Assembly (NCBI RefSeq): GCF_037042905.1
Contig: NC_087245.1
Span: forward strand, 10,728,001-10,792,000
DNA: 64,000 nt
Reading direction: 5' to 3'
From: Lytechinus pictus
Lineage: Eukaryota
Part shown: piece by piece, positions 18,983 through 62,213 of the stretch
Layout: each line of letters opens with the position of its first letter
Position numbering within the stretch: position 1 is the stretch's first letter
Made by a program: the position numbers and the translations under genes
The notes under the pieces: model-generated
The model's database searches: none
What the model was told of the DNA's origin: nothing
Seen by the model: only the letters and a program-made list of their open reading frames with translations

Positions 18983-19178
18983 CACTCTTAAAAACGTTGG
19001 GCAACATACGGTCCACACAACAATTGGTTAAAACTTTATCAAATTCTGAGTAGCTTTAAACCAATAATGTGTGCTTTTGGTGAAAACTACACAGTATTGG
19101 TTGAAAACTACCCAGAGTTGGATAATGTTTTAACCAATTGTTGTGTGGACCGTATGTTGCCCAACGTTTTTAAGAGTG
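18983..19178. mobile_element. CACTA/EnSpm-like MITE
   Basis: ~50-bp perfect TIR CACTCTTAAAAACGTTGGGCAACATACGGTCCACACAACAATTGGTTAAAAC; 2-bp TSD AA. Confidence 0.85.
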
Positions 19179-25407: not shown

Positions 25408-26400
25408 AAACAAGTGGAGCGCCTCTGGCAGTCTCGCCTGTATTACGTAATTCGATATAGCATCAGTGCTGCCTTTGAAAACAGCTAATTAATAATTATT
25501 CACAGCAGAAAACACTAATGTGATAATAAAATGTTATGTTCATTGACCCAAAATGACCTTCGCCCATGATCATGTAACCTAAGACATGTGCAAAACAATA
25601 ATTCATACTTTATTACCCTGCTCATAGGGCATTCAGGGATGTTCTTGTGTCCAAGTTTCATGAACTATAAGATTTAAAAGTTATGATGGCAATTCTTCAA
25701 ACACCCCCAACATGGCCAAAGTTCGTTGACCCTAAGTGACCTTTGACCTTAGGCATGTGACCTGAAACTCGCACATAGTAGTCAGGGGTTTATGGTTGCT
25801 CTTATGTCCTAGTTACATGAACTAGATCTATAAACTTTTAAAGTTATGATGCCAATTCCTCAAATAACCCCAACATGGCCAAAGTTCATTGACCGTAAGT
25901 GACCTTTGCCCTTAATCATGTGACTTGAAACTCGAGCGAGATCTTAAGTGATGCACTATTACCCTTATGTCTAAGTTTCATGAACTAGGTCAATATAATT
26001 TCTAAGCTATGATGAAATTTCAAAAACTTAACCTTGGTTAAGATTTCGATATTGAGTCCACCAACATGGTCTAAGTTCATTGAATCTAAATGACCTTTGA
26101 ACTTAGTCATGTGACCTGAAACTCAAGCAGAATCTTTGGTGATACTCGATTATCCTTATTTCCAAGTTTCATGAACTAGTATAGGTTTATATACTTTCTA
26201 AGTTATGATGCCAATTCAACACATACTCCCAACACAGCCACAGTTCATTGACCTTTAAATGACCTTTGATCTTGACCATGTTCCTGGAATGCGCATAGGG
26301 TGTTCAGGGATGTTCTTATGCCCAAGTTTCGTGAACTAGATCTATAAACTTTTGAAGTTATGATAACAATACCTCAAATAACACCAACATGGCCAAAGGT
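25408..26400. repeat. Array of ~5-6 diverged 155-190-bp units, probably the body of a Helentron-like non-autonomous element
   Basis: Recurrent CCAACATGGCCAAAGTTCATTGACC...TGACCTTTGACCT...CATGTGACCTGAAACTC...AAGTTTCATGAACTAG (anchors 25707, 25870, 26061, 26229, 26384); begins AAACAAGTGGAGCGCCTCTGGCAGTCTCGCC. Confidence 0.8.
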
Positions 26401-32292: not shown

Positions 32293-33851
32293 TGTTGGCA
32301 AGCAAAAAAGGTTCTGCCGACGTCCTTGTGATGGCATCCGAATGGATATTCTAATACCATTTGAAGATAATATAAACAGTGTTAGACGGTATGTTATATG
32401 TTAACAATTAAGATCTCAATGAAAATCATCGCTTTTAATTTGAAAAGTAGTGCTTGGAAAGAGCGAAGTGTTTCTGAACCTTCCATCTGGAACATCTGGT
32501 CTCCCATCTCATGGGTTAAAAAGCAATCCTGGTCATTGTGAGGTTCATTGCGACTTAAAACAGAATGTGAATATGATTTTCTGGGTTGCTTTCGATGTTC
32601 GCTATCATCTCATGGTAATACCTGAGTTCAGGAATGTATCAAATTAATTCAACGACTTTCTAAAAATGATCTTATCAATAGTCCTCCACGAACATTTTCA
32701 AAAGAAATGTAGGCTAACCCATTTCATGAAAACGTCATATATTCCATTTGTGCCACAGTTGTATTTTGAATAAAAGTAAAGCATCCAAGTCGTAAAGACA
32801 GTAGAAAAATTGAGAATTTAATCATGTATTTTATTTATTTGCATAATGACCCTTTTAATGTAGTCTTCTGGTGGCAGTAGAATTAATTGCTTCCTCAATT
32901 TCATATATTTTAATTCATGAACTTTACTTTATTCTTTTATTCAAATTCCCGACGTGTTTTTCATGTTGCCTTTTGACTTATTTTGTGTCTTGCTATCTCA
33001 ATTAAAAGTCTGAAATTTTAAAAAATCAAGGAGACATCTAGGTAACATTCTATACATAGACTTGTAAACAAAATGTTGCGTCAATTTTGTGAAAACTCGA
33101 ATTTTTTGTGAGATTACAATCGTTTGCATGCAGTAGGAAACTTCAACTTTTAAACAGTGCAGTATTAAGCATGTGTCATACGAGAGGACTCGAAGAGCTT
33201 GAAATGTCTCTTGTTTCCACTCTGTTATGCATAGTGTGATCCTAATATGATTTCATTCATGATTGATTGTGTCGTCTCTGGTGCATTTTCCTTCCCAGTA
33301 GACAAGCTATATCACCAACATAGTCTTGCATGGTGGCACAACTGATTCGTCCTTGTACAGAGTAGCATATCGTGGGCCGACATGGAGAGGGAGGTAAGCA
33401 GTGGTGGTAAAGTAAGATGTGTCAGAAAGGAGCTAGAAAACTGTCAGTTTTACACCTTTGCATATTACTGCGCATTGCTACGAATGTACCCAGCCATATA
33501 CACGAACTAGGGTAGTATGCTTCGTATCTAGATCGTTAGTAGATCGTATACAAAGCTAACTGTATTTGAGCTGGATAGGCTAGATTGGGTAATAAAGCAA
33601 CTGCTAACTAAACTGGGTACAGGCAACAATACAAGCACCCACCAGGGAAGATAAATCGTGCACGAAAAGCAGCAACGCGGTCGCAAGAAGATTTCTAAAA
33701 CCAGCTAGCAACTATAGAATGGGCTTTAGAGTATATAATAACTTAGCCCTTGTACGTTGGTTCACATCCTTGGTAAATGCGCTACGCAGAGTTGAGCTAT
33801 TAGTATCATCTTTAAAATGTTTAAAGTGAGGTGTTCAGGGGACAGACGAAT

Positions 33852-34122: not shown

Positions 34123-35264
34123 AATAATAATAATCAAAATAAAATACAAACGTGTAGTCTAGCTTTTCTAAATGCCCTTATTTTAAAAGAATATGAACAA
34201 AGAATCATTTTTATTATTGATATTTTGATATACAATAATTTTGTCTACTTTCGATGAATTATTCTAATCAATAAAGTCATGTGATCTTTACTTACACATG
34301 TCCAGAATGCATTGCGTGCGGATGAATAAATCATGTGTGCCCTGTTAAGGACAGCACAGATTTTATATATTATGGAATGATTTGTGAGCGTTTCTAGATT
34401 CATGGGACTTTAGTTTACCAATGCTTCACACGACAAGTAATGAGAAATTTGCAAAAGATAGCAAGAATAGTTTAACGACCAGAATGCGGCGAGAAATTTG
34501 GAGATCAAATTCTCAGAATAGGCAATTTCTCCACTGGCTTTCGTTCGCGTTCGCCAGTTAAAACAGAAGCTTATATTAAACCTAACAGTCACACTCACAT
34601 TTAAGCTCATTTAAGAGTTGCCATGGCGGGAAAATGTTGCACCAGTCACTATCAACGTAGCCGAAAATGGCACTCGCGTATTGGGAACGAAATACGCGTG
34701 TTTATTTCAATAAGTTGGGTATCACTACATAATGGTTGGAACTATACCCCTTATAGACCATCTCATTTTCTAAGCATCATAATTTTTTTTTCTGCGAAAA
34801 TATTTATCAGTTTTAGAAAATTGAGCAGATCAAAATCCCATGTTTAGATCGATGACTCAGATTCTATGCAGGTATATATCGGCTACCAACGAATGTGACG
34901 ATTCCAAACTTGCTCATTTGCACCCCCTTTCCCCTTGTCGTGCTGGCGAAACATTTGTACTCTTCCAAGTTAGTTCTATGATGTCATCACGCCGGTTGAT
35001 TGTCTCGCTACTTCCATCTCGAGCTCCGGCACATGATTCGTCGACTGACGACGGATCTTGTTCTAAAGCCGTTTCCTATCGGATTTCTGGGTATGAACAG
35101 CTATTTCGCAGTGAGGTTCGGGTCTGGTCAATACAATTTTGATGAATTCTACTAATTTTCTACCTTTCTATCCCTGTTTTTCTCTCGTAAAATCGAGTCT
35201 TATCGTTCATCTGGACACTGCGCCTGCTCTCCCGCGCGCCGTATGTAATACGTAATAATGTTAA

Positions 35265-36016
35265 CCCTAAAAGGACTGGGCTATTTGAGATGTATGAGGA
35301 CTGGGGGGGGGGGGGGGGTATGATGCCCCCTCCTTGTGATCTCGGCCGCCGTTCGCGCGATCGTGCCGAAATTTATCACGCACAGTCTTTACCACATAAA
35401 CTACAAGCCAGTATAAAAAATTCTGAAAATAATATTTTTTCAATTATTATGAATAAAATATGCAAATTTATTCATGAAAAACATTATTTGCATATTTAAC
35501 ACCCTTTTTCACTTCAAATTTTCTTCTTTTTTTGCAGATGTCATCTTTCTAATGTATTTCAAGGTTTCCACACAAAAAAATTGCGAAAGCCAATTTTTTT
35601 CTTTAGGTATTTCTTTGTTTTTAGAATTTCTTATGTATTTCTCTGTTTTTTATCTTTTGTTTTTCTTTTTTTTTCAATGGAAGTTATTACAGACCATTTA
35701 ACAACAAAATTAAACCCTAAAATAATTAAGCAGACCAATTAGAACGAAAAATAATCACCCTTTTATGAATTTCATCTCCCATAGACTTTGTACACTAAGT
35801 ATAAAAATTAGCCATTTTCGGCATGATATTGCCTCATAAAAAGTCATGTGACGTCGCAAAGGTATACCCGTATGTCGCAAATTTGGTCTCAAAAGTTACG
35901 CAAGAATAAAAAAAAGAAGTCATAAAATTTTGCGGCGCTTTCTTTTTTCGTTTCGGAAATATCTCGCGAAGCGTCGAAGAGGGGGGGGGGGCATCATGGC
36001 CCCAGTCCTTTTAGGG
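35265..36016. mobile_element. piggyBac-like MITE
   Basis: Perfect 16-bp TIR CCCTAAAAGGACTGGG; TTAA TSD at 35261-35264 and 36017-36020. Confidence 0.92.
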
Positions 36017-41547: not shown

Positions 41548-44500
41548 TTATGTATGCATGGATCTCTTTTTTAATGTAAGCATTGTATTGCCTGAATATT
41601 TTTAAAGAATGATATCTCCCCAAAGCAGTGCTCTGCAAATAATTATTATGCTCCAGTCTTCCCCTTTTTACTACATTTTATTCCCCATCAGCCAAATAAA
41701 CAAACTGCTATCAATACTATTCAAAACGCCATTTAGCTTATTATACAAACGAAACAAAATAGCTTTTTAAATCCTGCTGGAGGTCATTAGGTCCAACGAT
41801 TAGCATTCCATTAAGAGATAGAATTTACAGTTAATGAATGTTGTCAAGCGAGATTCATTTCGCTTTGTTTTTCAAATCGATTATGGACTTTTCGGTGTCA
41901 TCGCTAATGATCTCGTGTTTTCGACTTTGGTCCACGTTTTGATTGAGGCAATAATTACACATACATGATGCCATATTTTACTCGAAAATTTTACTCGCAT
42001 TGCAACGTCAGACGTTTTTATGGACCACTCATCATCGCAATGACATTTTCAGCAAACACATTTAACAAAACATAACCTTGATCAGCATTGAGATTGCTAG
42101 ACTGAATGATATTCTGTCCGGTAGGTAAATTACCATCTTCACGCATTACCTTCGCCATTTCATTTGTCAATAATTGCAGGAAAATATACCATTAGATTGC
42201 CAATTACTTGTCAAAAACGTGTTGACACAAGTAAATGCTTCTCTTCAGAAAAGCACCAGTTTCTTGCAATTATGATACCTGATATGTGCATTGATTAAAT
42301 ATGCTTTCGTGAAAAAGCATTTGTTTTTAGAAAATATACCCTCGAACATTTGATAAGAAAGTATTATACATAGACTCTTTATCATGATCATTGCTGTCAA
42401 ATAAAGATACTTTAAATGCCTATAATAATATTATTGTTTATCGAAATGGACCAAGATGACCTTATGATTCACCTATTAAAAGATAATCATAAGTCCCATC
42501 GTAAAACACATCATGTAGGGATATATGGTAGGATGACGAACGAATATAAATATGGTTATGTCTATATGAAACTCACCTTCGTAAGGTCACGTGGTATGGA
42601 TATCGTTGAGTACCCGGATATCAACCGTGAGAGTGACAAGGTCTGCGGTAGATGATACCAATTACTCTGTATTTATAATCTTACATAGAAAACCAGAAGC
42701 GGGGGAGAAGAAAAAAACTACTATTCCTGTTCATATGATCGAAAGTCAAGGAGGGTCTCTAACGGAACGTGGGAATATTGCAATTAAAGTTGACATTAGA
42801 GTTGCGGGGTTATTTCCGATATCACTCTTTGATGTAGAAAGGCTTTGTTGGTGTATTCCATTTGTCGTGTTTGTGTGTTTCCATGCGAGGGCGTTTCATT
42901 ATAGTTGAGTTCGATAATGATTACGTTTATTGTCATAAGAATTCACATGGTTTTTTTTCTTTAATCTTATCTACATTTCAGGGTTGCCATGGGATATAAT
43001 GATACCCTTCTAAAATCCCAGTGTTGCTTCTACGAATGTGTCGGGTCTATTTGGTGCCTTTGTGAACAAGATCTTAGGAATCTAAAGTTTCTGCAAATAT
43101 TTATTAAAGTTGAAAATACACCAAAGCCATTATTTGCAAACAAGTATAACTTCTACGGCCAGGAATGTCAAATTAAATGTAAATGGGTAAAATGTCATGA
43201 AAGAGGTCGACATTCGATTTGAATTATGCTACTCAAGGATTTACAAAGCTTTTTTGTCTGCCTTTTCTTTCTTATAGCCCCACCCTCTCTTGACGGAAAA
43301 TCTGCAGAAAATGACAAAAACACCCTTTCAAGAAGATAAAATTTCAGAATTGGATTCAGGATCTTTGTTGAAACTTTATTTAACGAAATAAAACATTTTC
43401 ATAGCCTCAAAAGTATCAGAAGTTTAAAGACGTCTGCATCAACCCCTTTCCCTCGCACCCTCTCTTTCTAACCCCATCTTTCTCTCTCTTGCTCTCTCCA
43501 CCGTACCCTCCCTTTCACCTTTTTTTTAACTTATTATTTCAACATCTGTAATTTGAAAATTGGAAGTTAATGAAATCCCTATCAATAGTTTTTGTAAGTT
43601 TCTGACGGGTTCGGTGACCTCAAATGTATTAACCGTTCCCCATTTACAATTCAACCTTTCCAGCATTTTATATTTCTTAGATGCCTGCCTCGTCCTTCTT
43701 TTTCCTCGCTTCCTTAGTTTTTGCAGAATTCTTTAATTATTTCGTATTCTTTATCCTAGATACTGCGACCCATGGTAGTTACAATATCGGAGAAGTGTAG
43801 AAGATTGATTTGCGCAAGATTGAAACTACATCTACGCGCCTAATAAGACTCTTTGCTCGAATTACGAAAACCTCATCGTGGATTGGCTCTACTGAAGATC
43901 TACAAAGTCAAGGTTGTTTTTTTCTCAGGGCCAGGGATGTGTTCTAATTGTGACAGCTTTCTCTCCCGCAGCTACATGGAATAGCACCATCCCGAGTCCT
44001 CAAATGTTAAAAAACTCCCTGGTTGCTTACCTAGAATGCAATTATACCATAAAAAGGGTGTATAGCAATAGTTTAATACATTTTAGCTCACAATATTCTC
44101 ATTACGTTACAACTGGCAGTTGTTTTCGACTCATAATAAGAGAATCCATTAACATTTTAACTGTTTCTTAGCATTAGCAAAGGTAAAGTCCTATGCATAA
44201 ACGTTTGTCGTTGTAGAACAAGTATATATTGTTGGAATCTACTCATCCCTTAAAACCTGTCATTGAAATTTGTGAAAATCACTCGTCTGATTTCTATTTT
44301 GAGAATAACGAAACTATTCTTCTACTTCACACTGGAAAAACGCGGATTCTACTTACAGTGTCCACGGTCCGTCCCCGCCTTGATACTTCTCTCTCACCTG
44401 GTCTCTATGAGGCGCCGAATGTACCAATATTATATAGAACAATTATTTGTTATATAATCATTATTTATTAAATAATAACTATTATTTATATATAATTTAC

Positions 44501-44606
44501 ATTTTATTTGTAAATAACTACTATTATATAAAATATCATTTCTAATTATTTATATATAATTCCAAGTAATACTTCATTATTTGTAAATAATAATAGTTCG
44601 ACATTC

Positions 44607-44965
44607 CATTATTTATAAATAATGATTATTTGTTTTTCATTATTTATAAATAATGATTATTTGTTTTTCATTATTTATAAATAATGATTATTTGTTTTTC
44701 ATTATTTATAAATAATGATTATTTGTTTTTCATTATTTATAAATAATGATTATTTGTTTTTCATTATTTATAAATAATGATTATTTGTTTTTCATTATTT
44801 ACAAATAATGATTATTTGTTTTTCATTATTTATAAATAATGATTATTTGTTTTTCATTATTTATAAATAATGATAATTTGTTTTTCATTATTTATAAATA
44901 ATGATTATTTGTTTTTCATTATTTACAAATAATGATTATTTGTTTTTCATTATTTATAAATAATT
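44607..44965 (+). repeat. 31-bp minisatellite, left arm of foldback 1
   Basis: Unit CATTATTTATAAATAATGATTATTTGTTTTT, about 11 copies. Confidence 0.93.
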
Positions 44966-47959
44966 TGTTGAGTTTTCCATTATTTATAAATAATGATTAT
45001 TTGTTAAATAATGAAAACGTCTACTTCATTATTTATAAATAATTTTTTCGAGTGCACCATTATTCTCATTATTTATAAATAATCATTATTTAATGTTCGA
45101 GTTTTCCACTATTTATAAATAAAGATTATTTGTTAAATAATGGAATATCTACTTCATTATTTATAAATAATAATTTTGTTTCAATATCCCATTAATCATT
45201 ATTTATAAACAATTTTTACAGTTTGCCATTATATACAAATAATCATTATTTATATACAAATAACCATTATTTATTAAATAATGCCATTATTTATTAAATA
45301 ATGCCATTATTTATTAAATAATGGAAAACTCGCTATAACATGCAAATGTGGGACCGCCCATGATATGAATATTCATGATGCGATTTCCTTTTTCGTGATT
45401 TTTCTTCACAAATTTTTGTCCATTTCCTCTTCATAATGACATTTCTTGAAGCAATTTTCTAGGGATATGGTCTGATTGTAATATTCTTCATTTTCTATAT
45501 AACTTCGTCTTCGTAGAAATATTAAAAAGTGTAATTTTATACGATTTTTCCTACAGTTCACAATCCCCATAGGCGCGCGTGTACGGTAGGGACAACCGGT
45601 GAATCGACGGAGTGCTCTTCATCGAAATACTACGTTGGTTGGTCCCCGGAAGTGGCGGGCGGAATTTAGCCCGAATCCTCGATGGAAGTCGATCAAGTGC
45701 ATATGAGCTGAGAGAGTGAAATATCAGTACTTGTACAGGCCCTTGTACAGGCCCTTCTACTTTTTATAAATATTTCTTGTTGCTTTTTTTGTTAAGTTAA
45801 TTTTTCCTGGTGTAGAGATAAGTTTCAGTTCTAATAATGCACTTCAAATACATTTTGGAGTGTCTGTTTGAGGCGTTTGGGGCGATTTCACCCTGGCCCC
45901 AAAATGCTCGCAACGACAATACGGGGGCATGATGACCCCTAAATTTTTAAAAACTTATTTTTCTATTGAAAATTATCACAAAATTCACCAAAAGTGTGCA
46001 CGAAAGCCTTCGTATTTCACTTTTAAAACTCCAAAAAGTGCCCAAATGACAAGCTTGGTCGCTTCGCTGTGTCGCTTTCAACTTGAGAACGTTTACGCGT
46101 CTGCTTCCCCCCCCCCCCTCCTCCGAAAGAAATTATGTATACGGCCATGCTCTAAAGAGCCTGGCACATTGATTTATGTATACTTCATTTTCATTATTTT
46201 TATCTCATTATCATCATGGCCTTACGCATAATTTTTTCCGGGGGGGGGGTGGGGGGAGCAGGACGCGCGTAAACTTTCTCATAAAAATCTTGAAAAAGCG
46301 AAGCGACCAAGCTTGTCATTTGAGCTTGGTCGCGTCGCTGTCTCGCTTTCAAGATTTTTTTTGAGAAACTTTACGTGCGTCCTAGCTGCTCCCCCCCCCC
46401 CCCGGTAAAAATTCTGTGTAAGGCCATGATGATAATGTGATAAAAATAATGAAAATGAAAAGTACATATAAATCAATGTGCCATATGCTCTTTTGAGCAT
46501 GGCCGTTCACAGAATTTCTTTCGGGGGGTGGGGGCAGACGCGCGTAAACGTTCTCAAGTTGAAAGCGAGACAGCGAAGCGACCAAGCTTGTCATTTGGGC
46601 TTGGTCCCGTGGCTGTCTCGCTTTCAAGATTTTTTTGAGAAAGTTTACGCGCGTCATGCTCCGGCCCCGGCCCCCCTGGAAAAAATTCTGCGTAAGGCCA
46701 TGTTGATAATGAGATAAAAATAATGAAAATGAAAGTATACATAAATCAATGTGCCAGGCTCTTTAGAGCATGGCCGTATACAGAATTTCTTTCGGAGGAG
46801 GAGGGGGGGCCGGGGGGGGGGGGATATATCGAAGCAGACGCGTAAACGTTCTCAAGTTGAATGCGACACAGCGAAGCAACCAAGCTTGTCATTTGGGCAC
46901 TTTTTGGAGTTTTAAAAGTGAAATACGAAGGCTTTCGTGCACACTTTTGGTGAATTTTGAGATAATTTTCAATAGAAAAATAAGTTTTTAAAAATTTAGG
47001 GGTCATCATGCCCCCGTATTGTCGTTGCGAGCATTTTGGGGCCAGGGTGAAATCGCCCCAAACGCCTCAAACAGACACTCCAAAATGTATTTGAAGTGCA
47101 TTATTAGAACTGAAACTTATCTCTACACCAGGAAAAATTAACTTAACAAAAAAAGCAACAAGAAATATTTATAAAAAGTAGAAGGGCCTGTACAAGTACA
47201 CTGATATTTCACTCTCTCAGCTCATATGCACTTGATCGACTTCCATCGAGGATTCGGGCTAAATTCCGCCCGCCACTTCCGGGGACCAACCAACGTAGTA
47301 TTTCGATGAAGAGCACTCCGTCGATTCACCGGTTGTCCCTACCGTACACGCGCGCCTATGGGGATTGTGAACTGTAGGAAAAATCGTATAAAATTACACT
47401 TTTTTATATTTCTACGAAGACGAAGTTATATAGAAAATGAAGAATATTACAATCAGACCATATCCCTAGAAAATTGCTTCAAGAAATGTCATTATGAAGA
47501 GGAAATGGACAAAAATTTGTGAAGAAAAATCACGAAAAAGGAAATCGCATCATGAATATTCATATCATGGGCGGTCCCACATTTGCATGTTATAGCGAGT
47601 TTTCCATTATTTAATAAATAATGGCATTATTTAATAAATAATGGCATTATTTAATAAATAATGGTTATTTGTATATAAATAATGATTATTTGTATATAAT
47701 GGCAAACTGTAAAAATTGTTTATAAATAATGATTAATGGGATATTGAAACAAAATTATTATTTATAAATAATGAAGTAGATATTTCATTATTTAACAAAT
47801 AATCTTTATTTATAAATAATGGAAAACTCGAACATTAGATAATGATTATTTATAAATAATGAGAATAATGGTGCACTCGAAAAAATTATTTATAAATAAT
47901 GAAGTAGACGTTTTCATTATTTAACAAATAATCATTATTTATAAATAATGGAAAACTCA

Positions 47960-48352
47960 ACAAATTATTTATAAATAATGAAAAACAAATAATCATTATT
48001 TATAAATAATGAAAAACAAATAATCATTATTTGTAAATAATGAAAAACAAATAATCATTATTTATAAATAATGAAAAACCAATTATCATTATTTATAAAT
48101 AATGAAAAACAAATAATCATTATTTATAAATAATGAAAAACAAATAATCATTATTTGTAAATAATGAAAAACAAATAATCATTATTTATAAATAATGAAA
48201 AACAAATAATCATTATTTATAAATAATGAAAAACAAATAATCATTATTTGTAAATAATGAAAAACAAATAATCATTATTTATAAATAATGAAAAACAAAT
48301 AATCATTATTTATAAATAATGAAAAACAAATAATCATTATTTATAAATAATG
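47960..48352 (-). repeat. 31-bp minisatellite, right arm of foldback 1
   Basis: Reverse complement of the left-arm unit, about 12 copies. Confidence 0.93.
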
Positions 48353-49659
48353 GAATGTCGAACTATTATTATTTACAAATAATGAAGTATTACTTGGAAT
48401 TATATACAAATAATTAGATATGATATTTTATATAATAGTAGTTATTTACAAATAAAATGTAAATTATAAATAAATAATAGTTATTATTTAATAAATAATG
48501 ATTATATAACAAATAATTGTTCTATATAATATTGGTACATTCGGCGCCTCATAGGTCTCGCCTCAATTAGTATGAGGATAAATCGTCACACTATTCCTGG
48601 CTCGTACCCTACGGATTTTCTATTTTACTAACACTTATTCATTGCTTGGTGTCAGGCGATACGCTATGTTGTTTGAACCATTCACTAATCGAACATGTTT
48701 GCGTATGTGACGGAAATTGATTAGTTTCCCCGCAAAAGCGAGACAGATCGGTGCCAAAATTTGCAAACGTTCGGTCACGAAAGATTTGTATGCACCATGA
48801 ATTTCAAGTTACAAATCAAGTTGAACAATTCAACTTCTACAAAGTCAACGGTGAAGTTCGAACACAATAAACCACACTAGAAAGTTTGGAGGCATATCAT
48901 AGCCGGATTAATTTCGTAACGGTATTTAAGAAAAGCTTTAAACTGGGGGAGGGCGGAGCGTACACAAAAAGCAAGTATAGTATAAAAGGTTCTATTTCAC
49001 GGACAAGCAGTGTACACCCGTACACATGGTAAAGCTTTGTATAGTGAAAAAGTTAATGGTATATTAAAAAATTGTCAACATCATGGAAAACGGTGTACTT
49101 TTCAACCCTATAAACATTAAATGTTATTTTTGAATGGTCGTATACGAGCATGGTGTCTCTCTACTTCAAATTAACTTCGTTTACATTACAATAGGAAAGT
49201 GATTCATGTAGAAATACTAATAACAAGGTCTCTTCCATTCCTGTGAAGAGGCTGTGGCGTTTTAGGTTTGGTAATTGACAGAAGCAAGCACCACTTATTC
49301 GTAGAAACATGTCTTCATTCCAAAATAAATCCAAGCGTCTTGTGTTTGATGATCTCACATATTTGCGGCTACCGATACAGATCGCCCTACTTTATTTGAC
49401 AGACAACAAATTATAAACCGAAAAGTTCAATGTTCCATATATTCGTTTGATTCTTTCACGATGTTACACTAAAATGACTTGGTCAAAACGTGACATCGAA
49501 TTTTAACATATTCAAAATACATAACATTAATTGCTTGTATGCAAAAGCAAATGACTGCACTTTTGAAAATAAAGGGAGGATAGCTCAGGGCAACTTTGAA
49601 TTACGTTGTTTTCTTACCCCATTTTTCACAACACGCACACCCACACCCACACATTTAAC

Positions 49660-49660
<1 letters not shown>

Positions 49661-49715
<55 letters not shown>

Positions 49716-49770
49716 ATATATATATATGTGTGTATATATATATATATGTAAATGTGTGGGTGTGTGTATA
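49661..49770. repeat. (TA)n/(TG)n compound microsatellite
   Basis: Direct inspection. Confidence 0.95.
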
Positions 49771-50737
49771 AGATAAATTGGGATTGGGACTAATAGAGGA
49801 CTGTTCCTTTTCATTTCTAACTTCTAATTCATCCTGATGATGTAACCATATGCACATTTAAATTTTGGTGGTCATGTCTAACTAAATCGAACTGAAAGAC
49901 ACTAGTTGTGTGAATGCAGCATTAAGCATTACAGAACGTCGAAAGGACATCTATTTCTCAAAGGAATGAGATCAGATGATGCGTGATTAACGAACTGTGC
50001 TAATTGAAGCTCTGGATCACCGATGTCATAAGATTATCGGAAGGAAAATTGAAGGAGATCCTTGTAGACTTACAGCCGTAAACTAAAATGGAATATCCCC
50101 AGGTAATGGAGGCGATATATCGAGGAACAATGTGCCAATGTGCTTTGCACTTTCGGCGACCATTAGTAACCTTCTTCGTGGCTTGCAGACAATTATATCT
50201 TCGCGTCCTGATTGCATTTTGCAGTCGACGTCAGATCTGACCGGATTACAAGTTTTCTTTTTCGTCAAAACTCAACAAAGAAAATTCTGTCAATATTGAT
50301 TAATGACTTCCAGTTCATGTTCAGACATTCCCTGCATAGGATTATCATGATATTGAAATATTAAATCGACCATACTTTCTCCCGAAGTCCATGTGTCAAC
50401 TATATCTTTATAATAAAAGCAAAAGGGACGTGTTTACCCCCTAGCAACTGACTGGAGCTATAGATAGTCTTTGTGCTGCCTTGCATTAAGTGGTTATGTC
50501 TTTCCTGAAAGGTTTATATGGACACCCACGCTTTCTTTTGGTCTTCTGAAACATATAATCAACGTCGATATGATGAAATCTGGACTTTACCCGAAGGAAT
50601 ATTTGAATAGAAACATCAACAATTACGATGATGGCCGGCGTAGAGGTATTCAGCCATTGTTAAATGCACTTATCATACCGAATTTCGAAGGAATCGTCAA
50701 TGGTTGTTATCATAAGTGTTTCATCAAATACAAACAA

Positions 50738-50905
50738 TATGATAATAATGTTGATGATGATGATGATGATGATGCTGATGATGATAATGATAATGATAAT
50801 AATGTTAATAATAATCACAATAATAATAATAATAATAATTTCAAAATAAGAAAAATAAGAGCAATGATTAAAATAATAACTGAAATGATAATGATAATAA
50901 TGATT
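50738..50905. repeat. (GAT)n/(AAT)n compound microsatellite
   Basis: Direct inspection; explains the poly-D/N, poly-M and poly-I ORFs. Confidence 0.93.
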
Positions 50906-51289
50906 GTATACTAATGAATTAAATAATGATAGCATCGAAATAAATACCAAAGTTCATAACATTGGTATAATGACCAACTTTGTACATAGTGTGCAATACC
51001 TAAAATCCCTTTTTAGGACAAATGAAATTGAAGGAAGACAATGTAACCAAAATTATCTTTAGACATATTTTGAATAAAACCTGACAAGTTGATATACCTG
51101 TTCACATAATGGCCTTACTCTGAAAAGATAAGAATTATTAAACTAATTAAATCCTCCCTTGTCTACCTAATAAGATCAGTGTCATCTTAAATAAATTGGG
51201 AATACAGTTCATTTGTAATCTACTTGCCCCTGCCTTTGTTAATTTTTCTGTGTTTTAAGAACAACTGCTGGCTAAAAGAATGTTTTACG

Positions 51290-51435
51290 TTTTAAATATA
51301 TCAGTAAGTAGGTATGCATCAATATAATTTTCATGGTTTGTGTGATTGATTTTGTTTAAGTCATTGACCGATAAGTAACGTAGCCATTCTAAAGGCGTGA
51401 CACAGGGCTCCATCTTCGAACCTCTGTCCATCAAG
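51290..51435 (+). pseudogene. Highly decayed LINE RT remnant
   Basis: From 51391 translates KGVTQGSIFEPL, resembling GVPQGSILGPL. Confidence 0.35.
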
Positions 51436-52841
51436 TTGTAATTTCCCACACCCAGCTTTCATTCAGGGCGCAAGCCACAACGCCGAACTATTGGAATAAT
51501 TTTTACCTTTTAAAGATATACACTTCTTTTTTATGAACAATGAAAATGAATTGTGTAGGTATACCTTTGTCATCTAATTTGTTATAAAGTTAAGATCAAG
51601 AATGTAGGTCTAGTTTAATTACACATTTGAATTATTTTTAAGTACCAACCTGAGCAGTTTTGGGGAAAAATGTGTAATTGGCAATTTTACCCAAGTGTAG
51701 AGAGGATTGAAATGCAGCCTTTCTGCCCGTATACCGTACGCATACCGTACATGTCATGATGATGATTGTGTTTGGGGAAGAGTGATATTTGACATTGAAC
51801 TTGTTGACCTGAAATATAAGACTTGATCAATCTCTCTTGGACGCCTAATCGTGAGTTTGATCTTTGTGTCCATCTTTGCCCCTCTTCCCCGCTTGCATGC
51901 TTGCTCTCACCCGTCCATCTTTCTGTCTGCCTTTAATTGTTCTAAAAAGGACCAATCTTCAAGCCAACCTCCCTTTTTGCTGGGGCTGTTTGATTTCGAC
52001 AGGATTTCACTGCCTTCCTTAACCTGTGACAACTCATATAAGGCCATGATAGTTGTTGAAGCTGTGATTTAGGAGATGGTCATGTCTATGTGGGAATTCA
52101 ATCATCCCCATGTGGTTGCGCTATGCAAATGTGAAGGAAGAAAAAGACTCGGCGACACAGAGCAGTGGTTTTCCAATCAGGAAGTCAGTGGTTCCAACAC
52201 AATTCAATGAATTCGGACAATTTGTTTTAACAGAGATTATGAATACCGCCACTTAAATTATTGCCTGTTAAGCTGATAAACAACCACAGTTTTCTTTCTA
52301 CTAGTCAAGTCAAATATAAGACAAACCAACGGTTATTAAAATAAATAAAGGTTAAATACTATACTTTTTATTCAAAATATAAAAGTAATATCTAAGATTA
52401 TCTTTAGATTACTAGGCCCTAATCTTCATAAAACTTACAATATATGGAAATTCCTTAAGAAAATGATAATTAGTTTTCGATTAAAACGAATACTAAATCG
52501 ATTGAATTGCAATGTGCAGGATTACCACAGGAGTACGTGTATTTCGAACCTATACTTTTTATTTGCAACGGAGACATTTGATGTTGGATTATGAAATTCA
52601 TATGGATAGAAACAGAACAGTCAGAGGTATATGGAACAATAAGAGACAAGCCTCATTATACAAGATCAGAATGTATATCCATGGTATATCTGTACAATAA
52701 AGTTGCCCTGTTTTGTTTTCGTTTTTGCTTTTCCCCTGGTGTATTGTACTTTGTATGGATAAGTGTTTACTCGTATTATGCTTTTATTGTATATTTGTCA
52801 CGGTGTACTCGTCACAAGTTTTGCTGAGTTGTGACTTTTAG

Positions 52842-52998
52842 CAGGGGCCGCGGAACGGTTTTCAAATTTGGGGGGGGGGGGGGGGCTGACCATGCTAAAA
52901 ATCACAATCATATGGTATTTTTTACGTTTTTGTAAACGGTTTTGGAAAAAAGTGGGGGGGGGGGGGGCTGGTTGCTTCAGCCGCTTCCGCGGCCCCTA
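52842..52998 (+). mobile_element. ~155-bp MITE with 5-bp TSD, copy 2
   Basis: CAGGGGCCGCGGAA ... TTCCGCGGCCCCTA; TTTAG on both sides; body matches 26431-26579. Confidence 0.85.
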
Positions 52999-53650
52999 TT
53001 TAGAAATGTATCAATGGTTTTACATTTGGAAATAAATGTTGAATTGAATTGAATCATCACTGTTCCGAATGTAGAGTAAAATACAGTCCATAAACCGAAC
53101 CATCACATTTTGAGCAGTGATCTCGCAGAATAAGTTTCTCCGATTAAAATAATTGAAATAAATGAAATTACACTACCCTTTTTAAACAGTTAAGTCCGTA
53201 ACGAGAACGAGACGAAAGGGATGGTATCTTTTAATGCATGATACTGAAAAAATAGCAAATTACAACAACATACCTGTGACCAGAACTAATTCTAAACTAG
53301 AATTTTAATTCGTCTTGAGGACGAATTAGGTGATCTGTCTGTCATTCTCATGATCACGATCTAATATTTGATCATTATAACCATGGCAATGCAGATCAAT
53401 ATAATCATCATCATTAAAAACAGACTTTTATTAACAAAAGAACATATTAAATACAGCAGCTGAAAGACAAAATATTACGTTGTGTAAACGATCTTGTTGT
53501 ATTAGAGAATGCCAAATGCACTTTCGCAAGTGACTACACGAAATAGTTAAAATAATGTTGCCGAAATCCATGAATGTAGAATCAAATTTTGAGAAAAATC
53601 AGTATTTAATAGACGTTACACACAAATACATGAGCAAAAAAAAACATTGT

Positions 53651-53716
53651 CAAGTGAGTTTCGAACCAAGGACCTTTGCATTGCAAGGTAGGTGTGCTAT
53701 CCATTAGACTACACAG
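53651..53716 (-). pseudogene. Degenerate tRNA-like segment inside the Helentron-like element
   Basis: Minus strand GTGTAGTCTAATGGATAGCAC...CTTGCAAT...GGTTCGAAACTC has A- and B-box-like motifs; stems are poorly paired. Confidence 0.45.
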
Positions 53717-54692
53717 CGTCCCGTACTCTCATAGTTCAAAGAAGGAATATTATCTTAAATTGACTTATGACAGTGAAAATTTGCATTGTAATATGCCTCT
53801 ATAAATTCTAAGTTTTGAGGATGAATAATTAATATAAGTGTAAATGTTATGCAATATTTAGTAAGAGTATAAGTCCAGCTACAATATGTCGAAATCTGGG
53901 CGAAAAATGATCAAGAATTACGGAGTTATAGTCATATTTGCAAAATTATTAAAACGTCATAAAACAAAAATGTAAAATTTTAGTTCCGACGCCATTTTGA
54001 TGACGTCATGATAAAATTTAAGGTCAAATGTGACATAAAATCACATCTATAATTCATACTCTATCCGAATATAAAAGAAAATTTAGGGGTCAACGGACTA
54101 TCTTAAGAGTTATATTGAATTTTGTAAAGGCATGTTTTTGCACATATTTGGTCTATTGTGAACGCGCGCGTGCGCGCGTAATTCAAACTTTGATGGAAGC
54201 TAATTCCTTTACTACTGGTCGTAGAAGGTTGATCAAGGTATCAAATTATTAGAAATTTATTAAAAAATGCATTGACGTAAAAGAAAGTGAGATTCTACAT
54301 TGCGTAACGACGCTACGCGCGTGAACGCGCGCGAAAACGTGTGAGCGCGCAAATTCTTGAAATGCTTCAAATGACCTGATCCGTACTCTTCTTTGATCAA
54401 AAAGTGATTTTGAGCATTTTAAATTTTTGACGCGCGCGTACATGCGCGTCGTGACCTGTTCATGACCTTTGATGACATGGACAGTTGACCCATGATCTGA
54501 AGTTAATTTTATGTTGATATTGTTCATTTTTGATAATTGATGATGAAGATATTGTTGATAATGTGATTTTACAAAATGGCGCGTAGATGACGTCACGATA
54601 ACTATTTGAGGTTGAACTTGTTTCGTACACATCGCATGATAACTGTGCATAATTGATAATATTTTGATGAAAATTGATCGAGCACTTTTTCT

Positions 54693-54869
54693 AACTGGGC
54701 GTTGTGGCGTGCGCCTGTAATCCAAGCTATGCGGGGAAGTTACAAATTGATGCAGAGGTTCGAGCCCTGGTCACGTCTTTCGGATGGTGACGTTAAAGGT
54801 CGGTCCCAGACGTAAATAATCATATCTGATTGATACACGTCTGACAAAACTCAAATACACACACACACA
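54693..54869 (+). mobile_element. SINE with 7SL/SRP-RNA-like head and (CA)n tail, copy 2
   Basis: ACTGGGCGTTGTGGCGTGCGCCTGTAATCCAAGCTATGCGGGG...; only a handful of differences from copy 1; possible short TSD TTCT; nested in 53297-54991. Confidence 0.82.
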
Positions 54870-55282
54870 TTCTGATTTTGGTGGAACAAGAAAAGGGTGG
54901 AAAAAGAAAAATAAATAATAAAAATAAATAAATAAAAAAGAAAATTCGTACGAAATTAAGAGTTGATCTGTCGATTGACAGATCACCTAATAATTTAAAA
55001 GTCAGTATCACGGACGACAATGGACTTGTTGCTACTGTAAAACCCATTCATCATGCAGGTCCATGATGCATGTCAATAACTCCTTAAAAACAACTTTGAA
55101 CAGTTCAACGACCCAGCAGAGCAAGCGCCTCGCACTGCTATTTATCAAGCTATCAATGTGTGTATGCCATCTTTCCAGGCAATCCCATCCCTATGGCACG
55201 CTTATAGGGAATCAATTAAATATATATTTCACTTGAAAAAAATATGTTTCTCTTCTACTAAACCATTTCACTCAAAGAAATT

Positions 55283-55750
55283 TATATTTCACTTTTCAAA
55301 AAAATATATTTCACTTTTATAAAAAAAATATATTTCACTTTTCAAAAAAATATATTTCACTTTTCAAAAAAAATATATTTCACTTTTCAAAAAAATATAT
55401 TTCACTTTTCAAAAAAATATATTTCACTTTTCAAAAAAAAATATATTTCACTTTTCCAAAAAACATATTTCACTTTTCAAAAAAAATATATTTCACTTTT
55501 CAAAAAAATATATTTCACTTTTCAAAAAAATATATTTCACTTTTCAAAAAAATATATTTCACTTTTCAAAAAAATACATATTTCACTTTTCAAAAAAATA
55601 TATTTCACTTTTCAAAAAAAATATATTTCACTTTTCAAAAAAATATATTTCACTTTTCAAAAAAATATATTTCACTTTTCAAAAAAATATATTTCACTTT
55701 TAAAAAAATAATATATTTCACTTTTCCAAAAAAAATATGTTTCACTTTTG
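55283..55750 (+). repeat. ~24-bp minisatellite, left arm of foldback 2
   Basis: Unit ATATATTTCACTTTTC(A)6-9. Confidence 0.93.
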
Positions 55751-55857
55751 AAAAGAATCATTTCACTTGTTACATTTTAATTTTGAAAGAAAACAAATCC
55801 TTTCACTTTTGTTGGATATCACATGCGGCTGCCGTATTAGACCGTACGTAAAATTCA

Positions 55858-56198
55858 TCTATCTATCTATCTACCTACATGATATATCTATCTATCTCTC
55901 TGCCTAATATATATCTATCTGTTTAAATCTATCTATCTATCCATCTATCTGTCTGTCTATTTATCTATCTATCTCTCGAACTATTTATTTTTCTATCTAT
56001 CTAACAATTATCTGTTTAAATATGTCTGTCTATCTATCTATCTGTCTGTCTCTTTATCTATCTAATATCTATTTATTTATTTTAATATGTCTATATCTGT
56101 TTATTTATCATTCAATCTATCTATCTATCTAATGATTTATCCGGCTGTTTAAATGTCTGTATATCTGTCTTAATTTCTATCTATCTGCCTATTTATCT

Positions 56199-56238
<40 letters not shown>

Positions 56239-56940
56239 ATATCTATCTATCTATCTATCTTATAAGTCTATCTGTTCAAAATATGTATGTCTATCTGTAT
56301 GTCTACCTTTTATCTTTCAATCTAATATATATTGATCTGTGCAAATAATCATGTCTGTTTATTTATCTGTTTATCTATTTAATATCTATCTATTAAATAT
56401 GTTAAATATGTTATTCTATCTGTCTATCTATCAATAAATATATCAATCTATTTTCTCTCTATCTATATATCTATCCATCTGTTTATCTATCTGCGTATGT
56501 ATCTATGTATCTATCTGTCTCTGAATCTATGTGTATATCAAATATAATATCATAATCACCGTTATCATCATCATCATATTTGCCATCAATCATCAGCATC
56601 ATCCTCCTCATCGTATTTTTTATCATCAATCAATATCTATCTAATGTCTATCTGTCTATCTATCTAATACCTATTTATCTGTTTATATCTATCTATATAT
56701 TAATCCTTTTATTAATATATATCTATCTTCTATTGATCAATCCACCTATCATTTATCTCTCCATCCATCGATCTATCTATCTATTTATCTATCTTTCTTA
56801 TACGTATCTGTTTAAATATGTATGTCTATCTGTCTGTCTATTTATCTTTCATACTTATATCCACTCATTTGTATAAATAATTATGTCTGTTTATCTACGA
56901 CCGACCACCTAATTCGTCCGCACGACGAATTAAAATCTAG
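55858..56940 (+). repeat. Degenerate (TCTA/TCTG)n tract ending in a Helitron-type 3' hairpin and CTAG (left arm)
   Basis: A|TCTATCTA... to CACCTAATTCGTCCGCACGACGAATTAAAATCTAG|T. Confidence 0.8.
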
Positions 56941-58644
56941 TTTCTTTTTCACTTGTTACATTTTAAATCTGAGAGAAAACAAATCCTTTCACTTTTGTTG
57001 GATAACACATACGACGGCGGCTGCCGTATTAGACTGTACGTAAAATTCATTCCTCACGTAAAAATCCATTCCTCTCGCTACGTAAAACATTTCACTCTTG
57101 TTGCAAAATTCATTTCACTCAATTGCAAAAAAATACGTTCCTCTTTTTTTTTCGGCCTGTAGGCGGCGCACATCATTGTTGTCAGGACGAGGTAACAGAG
57201 ATGGTTGCAAAATTTTCGCTCTGCTGAGGGGAGAAATCATGAATCCGGTTGCAACACACAAAATGACAAGGATATGGGAATACCAGCGAACCCAATTACA
57301 ACACTTTCCCACGCGTGCCCGAGAATATACACCACGAGGTGGGCCCATGAACACAAAACATAAAGTTTGATTTTATTGCTGATTATGCACAATAGCCAGT
57401 GCAATCAGCTGTTGCATTCTGCCCTACGATCAATCACTAACGTTTTGTAGGCATGATATGAAGCATGAATAGCTCCACGCATGGCACTACACTATCTCCG
57501 GAGCTAAATGGACAAGGTGTTGAAATTTCCCTTTTCTCCATTCCGTCTGTCTTTTACTTCATTGACATACGATAATCGCGATGATTGATGAAATGAAGCT
57601 TACAAAAGGCTACATTTCACTGGTCAACTCGCTTGTACTTCCGTTGCAAAACCAAATTCTCACCATTTTGTCACGGGCAGTGCTTCTTCAAACCAGACAT
57701 AGGCGGTAAAGCATACATGACTGAATGGGTGAAGACGTCATCGCTTTCGGTGGACATTCTCGGCTAACACCAAATTTTTAGGGTTGAGCGATGACGTCAT
57801 CACTTAACTTCAGTCCCGTATACTCACTTTTCATGTCTGTTCAAAAGACGGTGAAGTACTGCCCGTTCTGAGAGTAGCATTGGAAAACCCCCCATTCATG
57901 TCTCGGACAAACTGGAGAGAATTTGGTTTTGCAGTGCAGGTACAAGCGAGTTGACCAGTGAATTGTAGCTCTTTGTAAGTTTCATTTAATCAATCATTAC
58001 GATCATCGTATGTCAATGAAGTAAAAGACAGACGGAATGGAGAAAAGGGAAATTTCAACACTTACCTTGACCATTCAGCTCTGTAGATATGTAGAGTGTA
58101 TGTATAAAGTATTCATGCCCCATGCCTACAAAACGTATAGCCAGACCGTGCTAAGGTTAGTGATTGATCGTAGGGCAGAATGCAACGGCTGATTGCACTG
58201 GCTATTGTGCATAATCAGCGATAAAATCAAACTTTACGTTTTGTGTTCATGGGCCCACCTCGTGGTGCATTCTCGTGCACGTGGGAAAGTGACGTAATTG
58301 CGTTCGCTGATATCCCCATATCCTTGTCATTTTGTGAGTTGCAACCGCTTTCATGATTTCTCCCCTCAGCACAGCGAAAATTTTGCAACCATCTCTATTT
58401 CCCACCAACAATGAAGCGCGCCGCCTACAGGCCGAGAAAAAAGAGGAACGTATTTTTTGCAATTGAGTGAAATGAATTTTGCAACAAGAGTGAAATGTTT
58501 TACGTAGCGAGAGGAATGGATTTTTACGTGAGGAATGAATTTTACGTACAGTCTAATACGGCAGCCGCCGTCGTATGTGTTATCCAACAAAAGTGAAAGG
58601 ATTTGTTTTCTCTCAGATTTAAAATGTACCAAGTGAAAAAGAAA

Positions 58645-59339
58645 CTAGATTTTAATTCGTCGTGCGGACGAATTAGGTGGTTGGTCGTAGATAAACAGAC
58701 ATAATTATTTATACAAATGAGTGGATATAAGTATGAAAGATAAATAGACAGACAGATAGACATACATATTTAAACAGATATACGTATAAGAAAGATAGAT
58801 AAATAGATAGATAGATCGATGGATGGAGAGATAAATGATAGGTGGATTGATCAATAGAAGATAGATATATATTAATAAAAGGGATTAATATATAGATAGA
58901 TATAAACAGATAAATAGGTATTAGATAGATAGACAGATAGACATTAGATAGATATTGATTGATGATAAAAAATACGATGAGGAGGATGATGCTGATGATT
59001 GATGGCAAATATGATGATGATGATAACGGTGATTATGATATTATATTTGATATACACATAGATTCAGAGACAGATAAATACATAGATACATACGCAGATA
59101 GATAAACAGATGGATAGATATATAGATAGAGAGAAAATAGATTGATATATTTATTGATAGATAGACAGATAGAATAACATATTTAACAGATTTAATAGAT
59201 AGATATTAAATAGATAAACAGATAAATAAACAGACATGATTATTTGCACAGATCAATAGATATTAGATTGAAAGATAAAAGGTAGACATACAGATAGACA
59301 TACATATTTTGAACAGATAGACTTATAAGATAGATAGAT

Positions 59340-59397
<58 letters not shown>

Positions 59398-59714
59398 AGA
59401 TAAATAGGCAGATAGATAGAAATTAAGACAGATATACAGACATTTAAACAGCCGGATAAATCATTAGATAGATAGATAGATTGAATGATAAATAAACAGA
59501 TATAGACATATTAAAATAAATAAATAGATATTAGATAGATAGATAGATAGATAAAGAGACAGACAGATAGATAGATAGACAGACATATTTAAACAGATAA
59601 TTGTTAGATAGATAGAAAAATAAATAGTTCGAGAGATAGATAGATTTAAACAGATAGATATATATTAGGCAGAGAGATAGATAGATATATCATGTAGGTA
59701 GATAGATAGATAGA
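58645..59714 (-). repeat. Mirror copy of the (TCTA)n tract and Helitron-type end (right arm)
   Basis: CTAGATTTTAATTCGTCGTGCGGACGAATTAGGTG followed by (GATA)n. Confidence 0.8.
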
Positions 59715-59819
59715 TGAATTTTACGTACGGTCTAATACGGCAGCCGCATGTGATATCCAACAAAAGTGAAAGGATTTGTTTTCTTTCAAAATTAAAATGT
59801 AACAAGTGAAATGATTCTT

Positions 59820-60290
59820 TTCAAAAGTGAAACATATTTTTTTTGGAAAAGTGAAATATATTATTTTTTGAAAAGTGAAATATATTTTTTTGAAAAGTGA
59901 AATATATTTTTTTTAAAAGTGAAATATATTTTTTTTGAAAAGTGAAATATATTTTTTTGAAAAGTGAAATATATATTTTTTTGAAAAGTGAAATATATTT
60001 TTTTGAAAAGTGAAATATATTTTTTTGAAAAGTGAAATATATTTTTTTGAAAAGTGAAATATATTTTTTTGAAAAGTGAAATATTTTTTTTTTTTAAAGT
60101 GAAATATATTTTTTGGAAAAGTGAAATATATTTTTTTTTGAAAAGTGAAATATATTTTTTTGAAAAGTGAAATACATTTTTTTGAAAAGTGAAATATATT
60201 TTTTTTGAAAAGTGAAATATATTTTTTTGAAAAGTGAAATATATTTTTTTTATAAAAGTGAAATATATTTTTTTGAAAAGTGAAATATAA
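59820..60290 (-). repeat. ~24-bp minisatellite, right arm of foldback 2
   Basis: Unit GAAAAGTGAAATATAT(T)n. Confidence 0.93.
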
Positions 60291-61639
60291 ATTTCTTTGA
60301 GTGAAATGGTTTAGTAGAAGAGAAACATATTTTTTTCAAGTGAAATATATATATAATTGTTTCCCTATGGGCGTGCCATACATCCCGTTATCATTTATCT
60401 TTATCATAGAACGATGGCCGGTTTTTAACCTTTAACCCAAAATAAAAGAATCTCGGAGTATCACTTAGATAAGTGAACCGTAAACCTAATTATCAGTTTA
60501 GCTTCAGGAAAGTAATGTGCGTGTGCGTGCGTCTGTTGTCGTTCCAATACCACCTAAGCTTTCAGGGATTTTGAAATAACCTGAAAACATAGAAAAGAGA
60601 TTTTATTTATATCCAAGATGGAAAAAAACAGGGTGTTTAAAACATATGTATACGATTGCTCACGATCAGCATATTTCAAGAAAAATTAGATATCATTTTA
60701 CCTATCAACTAATTTGACCCACTCCACCTTGCAAGTAACCAACATTTTGATGATTTAAGAGTTTAAAAGTGACCTTAACGAAGTAGGCATATTTTGCTAT
60801 TTTAATTTCAAAGTAGGAATTTCGTCTATCTTGTGTTGATGTGTCTATGTTGTTTATATATTTATTTATTTCTTTTAAAATTCGGTAAATAGAAAGCATT
60901 TATTTAAAAATTGTACGCCAATTTAATCAACCCCACCCATCACTGACATAATTTTCACTTTCACTCCTTTTTAGATTACCTTGTTCCACATACCGTTGTA
61001 TTATTGGACCTGCATTCGTGCAATTTGCTTGATATCCACCCAAAATGCATAAATACCAGTGACTGTGTTTATGATTTTAGGCTGATGATTGAGGTTTGAA
61101 CCTCGGAACATGTTCCATTTATCAAAATGTTATGTTATTTTCATTATGTGATTTACTTGATACATTGTCAAAATCTTTTTGACCGTTTCGCTCTGTCGCG
61201 TCATTAAAAAAAAATTCACCAAATGCTCTGTTTGCCGCCCCTTACTTTTTACTCAATACGCCACTGTCACGATGTGCCAATTTAAAATTACAACTACATA
61301 TTTCCACCTCATTCAAAAAATATCTAGCTATTTTCAAGACAATGAATGTTGAAGACATGATGAATAATCTGATCATGAAAGACATGTTTCCCTTATGACT
61401 GGAAAATCGAGTTCAATTTAATGTCACTGTATTTTTAAAGATGATCAGTGCTTTCTGTTTTGATTTATGCCATGTTTCACATGCGATATGAATTAGTATT
61501 CCCGTCAGCATAATATGGTGATCTACCCAGGATGTAGATTATACCATTTCTATTATAGCATTATTAGCATTATTTTGTCTCTTACTAGAATTATATTAGA
61601 ATGCTCTCTTTCGTGCTCAGAATGTGGTGTGATACTTAA

Positions 61640-62213
61640 AGGAGAATGAAACCCTTGAAACTAGCTGAATTCATATCAAAGAGAAAAATCAAAGAAACAT
61701 ATTGTTGAAAGTTTGAGGAAGATTGAATGAATAATAAGAAAGTTATGAGCATTTGAATATTGAGATCACTAGTGCCATGTAGATCCTCCCATCGGCAATG
61801 CGACCAAGATCTGTGATATCACACACGTACAACTCCCTCATTACTTTAGTACTTATTTCACTTATATTCTCACTTTTATAGAGTCTATCACAAGGTTAGG
61901 TGTTTTCTTTATGAGATGACAAGTACAGAGGTTTCACAACATTATATCATTGATGAATCGTTTGTCATATGATTAGAATGAGCAAAAAGAGATGTTTTGG
62001 GGTATATTTTCAGTGTCCGAATGGGAGATGTTGTACGTGTGTGACATCACAGATCTTGGTCGCATTGCCAATGGGGGGATCTCCATAGCATTAGTGATCT
62101 CGACATTCAAATGCTCATAACTCTTCTATTGCTAGTCCTATTTTACTCAAAGTTTTGTTGATCTTATTCTTTGATTTTTCTGCTTTCACAAAAGCTAACT
62201 TGCTCCAAGAGTT
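61640..62213. mobile_element. Kolobok-like MITE with ~200-bp imperfect TIRs; right terminus damaged
   Basis: TTAA|AGGAGAATGAAACCC; inverted GGCAATGCGACCAAGATCTGTGAT..CACACACGTACAAC / GTTGTACGTGTGTGACATCACAGATCTTGGTCGCATTGCC; no right-hand TTAA. Confidence 0.75.

Follow-up and report, generated by a model that had tools for sequence, protein, structure and literature searches.

The TU elements of sea urchins are foldback elements. Transposons of this type are known in flies, plants, nematodes and sea urchin and are mostly described as Mutator-type with target-site duplications (TSDs) of 8-10 bp (PMC4079207, PMC3169594); the foldback shape itself is described as arising in several superfamilies (PMC4079207, PMC3573991). 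The IS3EU superfamily, whose structure and function are largely unexplored according to a 2025 paper (PMC11934779), is reported to form one lineage with GingerRoot, complete families being described with TA..TA at the termini and TSDs that are usually 6 bp long (PMC10045372). Fungal IS3EU ends are given as TAYGG..CCRTA (PMC12730594), and GingerRoot is described with GC-rich 6-bp TSDs and terminal inverted repeats (TIRs) of 100-150 bp (PMC6839031). Here we analyse two palindromic elements, element 1 (E1, 44406-48553) and element 2 (E2, 55192-60380), in a stretch of 64,000 nucleotides from Lytechinus pictus (NCBI RefSeq assembly GCF_037042905.1, contig NC_087245.1, positions 10,728,001 to 10,792,000 of the forward strand). 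This whole stretch is called the window, and all coordinates refer to it. We propose, with a probability of about 0.7, that E1 and E2 are foldback-shaped, non-autonomous DNA transposons of two families, most likely of the IS3EU/GingerRoot lineage.

Both elements display the features of the foldback type: their long modular TIRs contain tandem repeats, and the middle is small and lacks coding sequence. Their flanking, outer tandem-repeat and inner domains around this middle resemble those described for the non-coding elements Tetris (PMC4079207) and Tm1 (PMC3169594), and the unlike terminal motifs at the two ends of Tm1 are comparable to the unlike tips of E2. Tetris and Tm1, however, are assigned to Mutator with 8-10-bp TSDs, whereas E1 and E2 have 6-bp TSDs and TATG ends. 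Galileo, of the P superfamily in Drosophila, is described with long, internally repetitive TIRs in its non-autonomous copies, as in E1 and E2, but it differs from them in superfamily and ends, its longest TIRs measure ~1.26 kb and its transposase is known (PMC3573991). No description of foldback-shaped IS3EU elements was found in the open-licence literature, Repbase Reports and subscription papers lying outside this search. If the assignment holds, one more superfamily converges on the foldback shape.

Boundaries, modules and insertion sites

Self-BLAST revealed two inverted-repeat units, E1 and E2, in the window, which is AT-rich and contains no N. Alignment of the arms delimits E1 as a palindromic, non-coding TIR element of 4148 bp and E2 as one of 5189 bp. 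Each starts with TATG, ends with CATA and is enclosed in an exact 6-bp TSD, GGTCTC for E1 (44400-44405 and 48554-48559) and CATCCC for E2 (55186-55191 and 60381-60386), as a preliminary description of this DNA had reported. An estimate from composition and a set of 2 million random pairs put the chance of an exact 6-bp direct repeat at ~4-5 × 10−4 per element. The direct repeats around E1 and E2 never exceed 6 bp for boundary shifts of −3 to +3 and lengths of 1-15. Scanning the window for TAY..RTA ends bounded by 6-bp repeats yielded 10 pairs, four of which lie inside E1 or E2 and were dropped; the remaining six are E1, E2 and four AT-rich pairs, which were rejected as they fall within the shuffled background of 0-4.

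The modular build claimed for the elements (short tip, AT-rich array, inner domain) was confirmed. The left arm of E1 (plus strand) begins with a terminal domain at 44406-44572, formed of the tip TATGAGGCGCC followed by AT-rich DNA, with 3 mismatches to the right arm over its 167 sites. Next come a 31-bp minisatellite with a palindromic core, arranged in 14 units up to 45005, and degenerate units (together 44573-45325), then an inner unique domain at 45326-46049, which differs from its counterpart at 2 of 715 sites. The centre (46050-46890), which had been included in the inner unique domain, instead consists of a 274-bp unit present three times, once forward and twice in reverse, with 6.7-8.6% divergence between copies. 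The right arm (46883-48553, minus strand) comprises the inner domain, degenerate units, a 31-bp array of 15 units at 47923-48386 and the terminal domain. Outside the centre, 10 mismatches separate the arms over 1634 aligned sites, and the rare variant units 8, 10 and 12 occupy mirror positions in the two arrays. BLASTN between E1 and E2 returned only short AT-rich words, in line with the claim that they have no obvious internal similarity; the best, a 16-mer common to E1 and the E2 array (E 0.018), was taken as an AT-rich chance match.

We then considered coding capacity. None of the 92 open reading frames (ORFs) of at least 40 aa in E1 and E2 matched a transposase or recombinase in Pfam, a scan that may miss short exons or domains outside Pfam, and the reported lack of a transposase ORF thus held. 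Their sole Pfam match, to Beta_helix, fell below threshold and lies in the 22-bp array of E2. Beyond the two elements, sub-threshold matches were obtained in 2 of 125 ORFs at 42000-64000, and only two reverse-transcriptase pieces of a long interspersed nuclear element (LINE) at 1-42000, where the 206 of 433 ORFs of at least 55 aa were scanned. Rfam at the gathering score and ARAGORN gave no match, and the exact ends of E1 and E2 had no match in viral contigs. One metagenome match to a 20-mer of E1 (L001) was dismissed as chance, since it is limited to those 20 bases and lies inside prokaryote-like coding DNA.

Contigs of four public runs (X1, X3, X4 and X6, from three samples, X3 and X4 being one) were aligned to 42600-44570. 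Their flank diverges from that of the window by ~4-8% (X1: 21/495 and 60/728 letters), which marks the samples as either diverged haplotypes or a near relative. One contig of X6 matches 44253-44405, and its next 30 letters are all identical to 48560-48589, with a single copy of GGTCTC: this is the empty site of E1, which the preliminary description had proposed to look for in other haplotypes. Flank contigs of X1, X3 and X4 also cease to match at 44405 and run on for 467-523 further letters, the join to the right flank being read in X6 only. The evidence for a young insertion of E1 is its absence from these three samples, which are themselves several percent diverged.

Many other insertions share the E1 terminal domain. 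Among the matches listed (24 of 199 rows), 92 contigs enter E1, starting at 44406 in 56 cases, 44405 in 26, 44404 in 7 and 44407 in 3, and the flanks of those starting at 44406 are unlike (agreement 0.40-0.44). These counts differ from copy counts because both ends of each E1 copy map here and the samples share insertions; likewise, the contig depth summed across the tip of E1, ~20 to 130 times that of the flank, was not used as copy number. The start positions also settle the boundary. A second symmetric reading, with CTATG ends and a 4-bp TSD, is possible for E1 only, and the empty site cannot separate it from TATG ends with a 6-bp TSD. It was rejected on the 56 of 92 contigs starting at 44406, because a C inside the element would put nearly all starts at or before 44405. 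A sister E1 subfamily ending TATGAGACGCC occurs in the same register in X1, X3 and X4 (contigs at 44420). E1 is therefore a real non-autonomous TIR insertion belonging to a multi-site family. In some contigs, opposite-strand joints were observed at 44455/44570, which may be short foldback derivatives.

These data bear on whether the palindromes could be artefacts of assembly or of read fold-back. The contig comparison was confined to the left junction of E1 and accordingly contains no contig or read across a whole element, as would also be the case for an artefact. Against this, the arms differ by substitutions, indels and unit number (14 versus 15), the centres are asymmetric, unique flanking sequence resumes beyond the exact duplication of both E1 and E2, and the empty site joins exactly the flanks of E1, which makes an artefact very unlikely. 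The elements had also been described as a foldback-type non-autonomous class. Non-autonomous TIR insertion stands, given the empty site and the starts at 44406, but a separate class does not, foldback being a shape found in several superfamilies.

Relationship to IS3EU and other superfamilies

We compared the ends and TSDs of E1 and E2 with those of described superfamilies. Both elements share TA..TA termini and a 6-bp TSD with IS3EU/GingerRoot, and the association of TAY...RTA-type ends and 6-bp TSDs with IS3EU given in the preliminary description matches the published signature (PMC10045372, PMC6839031). The E2 ends, TATGG..CCATA, fit those given for fungal IS3EU, TAYGG..CCRTA (PMC12730594). 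G/C accounts for 8 of the 12 TSD bases versus 35% expected (p 0.026) in this small sample, a possible parallel to the GC-rich TSDs described for GingerRoot (PMC6839031). In the contigs, C precedes TATG in 10/23 cases in X1, 9/22 in X6, 9/23 in X3 and 5/21 in X4, compared with 17% expected, in small and non-independent samples. Taken together, the ends and TSDs suggest that E1 and E2 probably belong to this lineage. Among the matches listed (30 of 34), the 14 IS3EU protein headers in the supplement of PMC10045372 include the acorn worm (SK) and no recognisable echinoderm.

Several points weigh against this assignment to IS3EU/GingerRoot. It draws on ends and TSD only, E1 and E2 having no transposase to compare. 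E1 starts with TATGA and thus has A at position 5, where the fungal ends have G (PMC12730594), and the arms of both elements, 1.8-2.5 kb long with minisatellites, exceed the 100-150-bp TIRs reported for GingerRoot (PMC6839031). The G/C count comes from two fully read TSDs, and X4, which with X3 forms one sample, has no significant excess of C preceding TATG (p 0.29). The end motif shared by E1 and E2 beyond TATG was noticed post hoc: E1 and the right end of E2 are identical at terminal positions 1-4 and 8-11, that is 8 of 11. The Repbase rule for grouping non-autonomous elements asks for the same TSD length and at most one mismatch in terminal positions 1-11 (PMC4455052); E1 has three mismatches with the E2 right end, and the sister E1 subfamily has two with E2. 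Given the 3/11 mismatches, two transposase families are likely to have moved E1 and E2. In addition, the evidence from other copies and from an empty site concerns E1, whose left junction the contig comparison covered. Finally, a 6-bp TSD is also described for hAT6.

The last point opens the question of whether the same foldback elements were moved by another DDE superfamily with 6-bp TSDs. Besides hAT6, Polinton and Ginger2 are described with such duplications, and no partner gene of any kind was seen among the Pfam-scanned ORFs of the window. However, Polinton ends are reported to start with AG and Ginger ends to be TG..CA, unlike the TATG..CATA of E1 and E2. The ends of hAT elements usually start with YARNG, a consensus that TATG does not fit; our literature search found no published hAT6 end sequences. 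We consider movement by hAT6, Ginger2 or a Polinton integrase unlikely.

A further alternative is that E1 and E2 are Crypton-like elements of a tyrosine recombinase, their 6-bp direct repeats being recombination sites. Indeed, Cryptons are described with terminal direct repeats of 4-6 bp, and TATGG is found at the termini of many CryptonS. In those descriptions, however, Cryptons lack TIRs and TATGG is a direct repeat, whereas E1 and E2 have long TIRs. Moreover, the other E1 insertions have unlike flanks and no recombinase was detected in the 92 ORFs, leaving Crypton-like elements a very remote chance. IS3EU/GingerRoot remains the assignment that we favour.

Layered arms and arm-to-arm copying

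E2 is built on the same modular plan, with additional pieces in each arm. Its left arm (plus strand) starts with a tip at 55192-55222, whose first 10 bases are perfectly inverted and which shows 4 differences from the right tip over 31 bases. A 22-bp minisatellite based on the word TTTCACT follows at 55283-55768; this word occurs 59 times in E2 (11.4 per kb versus 0.3 per kb outside). Two copies of a ~100-bp direct duplication, at 55762-55857 and 56948-57048, flank a nested Helentron/HINE-like fragment at 55858-56941 (~1.1 kb per arm), which is mirrored in the right arm. The two copies match their right-arm mirrors at all but 0/96 and 1/99 sites, respectively, while within the arm they stand 5 substitutions and a 6-bp indel apart. 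An inner arm at 57166-57745, 10.7% different from its mirror at 57793-58421 with 15 indels, leads to an unpaired loop of 47 bp (57746-57792). The right arm (57793-60380, minus strand) consists of the old inner part up to 58421, a recently matched outer part at 58422-60349 and the tip.

The nested fragment is rich in (ATCT)n and ends with a hairpin with a 9-bp stem, CTAG and a T run. HINE/DINE-1 elements are described as non-autonomous Helentrons (PMC4067079), and the fragment resembles this description in its microsatellite-rich body and its 3' stem-loop near a T-rich end, but differs in that the 5' subterminal repeat is absent, only the 3' copy being present in each arm. A free element carries a similar 3' end, the two matching at 89% over 46 bp (53294-53339). 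Judged from these features, the nested fragment is a truncated passenger of E2. The free HINE/Helentron-like element itself extends over ~53294-54999 on the minus strand and displays 5' and 3' hairpins, a CTAG-T end and paired subterminal inverted repeats at 53325 and 54984.

The divergence between the E2 arms is layered. Mismatches amount to 4/31 in the tips and 14/1902 over the next 1.9 kb; the inner 0.6 kb has 59/552 in addition to the 15 indels. Fisher tests gave p 7e-27 for outer versus inner and p 1.4e-4 for tip versus outer, with breakpoints and the tip test chosen after inspection of the data. The near-identical arms reported in the preliminary description are thus found in E1 and in the outer part of E2, and not in the inner 0.6 kb or the tips of E2. 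Insertion of the passenger and the ~100-bp duplication each occurred once but are present in both arms; therefore one arm was later copied onto the other. It follows that the age read from arm identity is that of the latest copying between the arms and not that of insertion or transposition. The claim that near-identical arms imply recent activity does not survive this result, the identity reflecting arm copying as recorded in the layers of E2, the mirrored array variants and the mirrored duplication. In practice, arm identity in such elements is not readable as insertion age, and E2 offers a clean, testable record of arm-to-arm conversion.

Layering of this kind would also be expected if E2 were a composite, formed by two related long elements placed head to head or by an old inverted duplication, and now moving or converted as a unit. 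The inner arms, 10.7% apart with 15 indels, and the tips, at 4/31, look as two diverged copies would. Yet a single clean 6-bp duplication surrounds the whole unit, and the end motif shared with E1 is confined to the outer tips, without any internal TATG-type end in E2. Arm copying would be required anyway for the 1.9 kb from the tip to the inner layer, where the difference is only 0.7%. A composite origin is thus highly unlikely, and we retain a single foldback-shaped element whose arms have been copied.

These observations can be arranged into a mechanism. Each element would have been inserted as a unit with duplication of 6 bp of target, which the empty site establishes for E1. An integrase-like DDE transposase encoded elsewhere would bind the TATG-nnn-CGC ends and is predicted to cut GC-rich DNA with a 6-bp stagger; extra binding sites are probably supplied by the subterminal minisatellites. 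The arms then grew and were homogenised by copying one onto the other. This pattern is seen in E1 and E2, and we infer that it arose by break repair templated on the opposite inverted repeat. In E2, the latest copying tract would extend from just inside the tip to ~57165. Through it, both arms would have received the nested Helentron-like fragment and the variants of the array, the tips and the older inner layer staying unmatched.

This copying fits the route of TIR extension proposed for Galileo, in which one TIR is repaired from the other: Galileo TIRs are described as extended through tandem-repeat growth and through recruitment of internal sequence into both arms by conversion, and the authors regard long TIRs as convergent across superfamilies (PMC3573991). 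More speculatively, IS3EU-type elements might rewrite one arm from the other during their transposition cycle, with tracts starting inside the transposase-bound tips, and so become giant palindromes stepwise, doubling the passengers of an arm. We regard this proposal as quite unlikely to be right. Were it true, the unmatched tips, young 1.9-kb layer and old 0.6-kb layer of E2 would record arm rewriting directly, and E2 would give a first clue to the movement of the uncharacterised IS3EU superfamily. In other animals, long palindromes of this kind are described as possible starting points of satellite arrays and of rearrangements (PMC4079207, PMC3573991).

Other repeats in the window

The window contains further repeats. 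A short interspersed repeat ending in (CA)n is present at 54693-54869, inside the free HINE/Helentron-like element, and at 9082-9256, the two copies being 97% identical; an older opposite-strand copy lies at 51352-51484. Its head matches positions 1-44 of the metazoan signal recognition particle (7SL) RNA with E 4e-6, below the gathering score, and the repeat may be a 7SL-headed short interspersed nuclear element. The LINE reverse transcriptase at 30909-32609 (minus strand) is broken, with RVT_1 at 31692-32030 and 32034-32381.

A 752-bp MITE (miniature transposable element with inverted repeats) at 35265-36016, with CCC..GGG ends and TTAA duplications, is presumably piggyBac-like. About 20 bp before it, a single word resembling a TAYG-type end (35234-35243) was noted; the scan for ends bounded by 6-bp repeats gave it no partner. 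Small inverted-repeat elements are located at 4107-4417, 18983-19178, 14188-14784 and 61675-62186, the last two of which share their end sequence. Finally, 597-bp direct repeats at 9292-9879 and 11335-11925 are 93% identical and enclose a 344-bp tandem array, and diverged 163-bp tandem units occupy 25619-26398.

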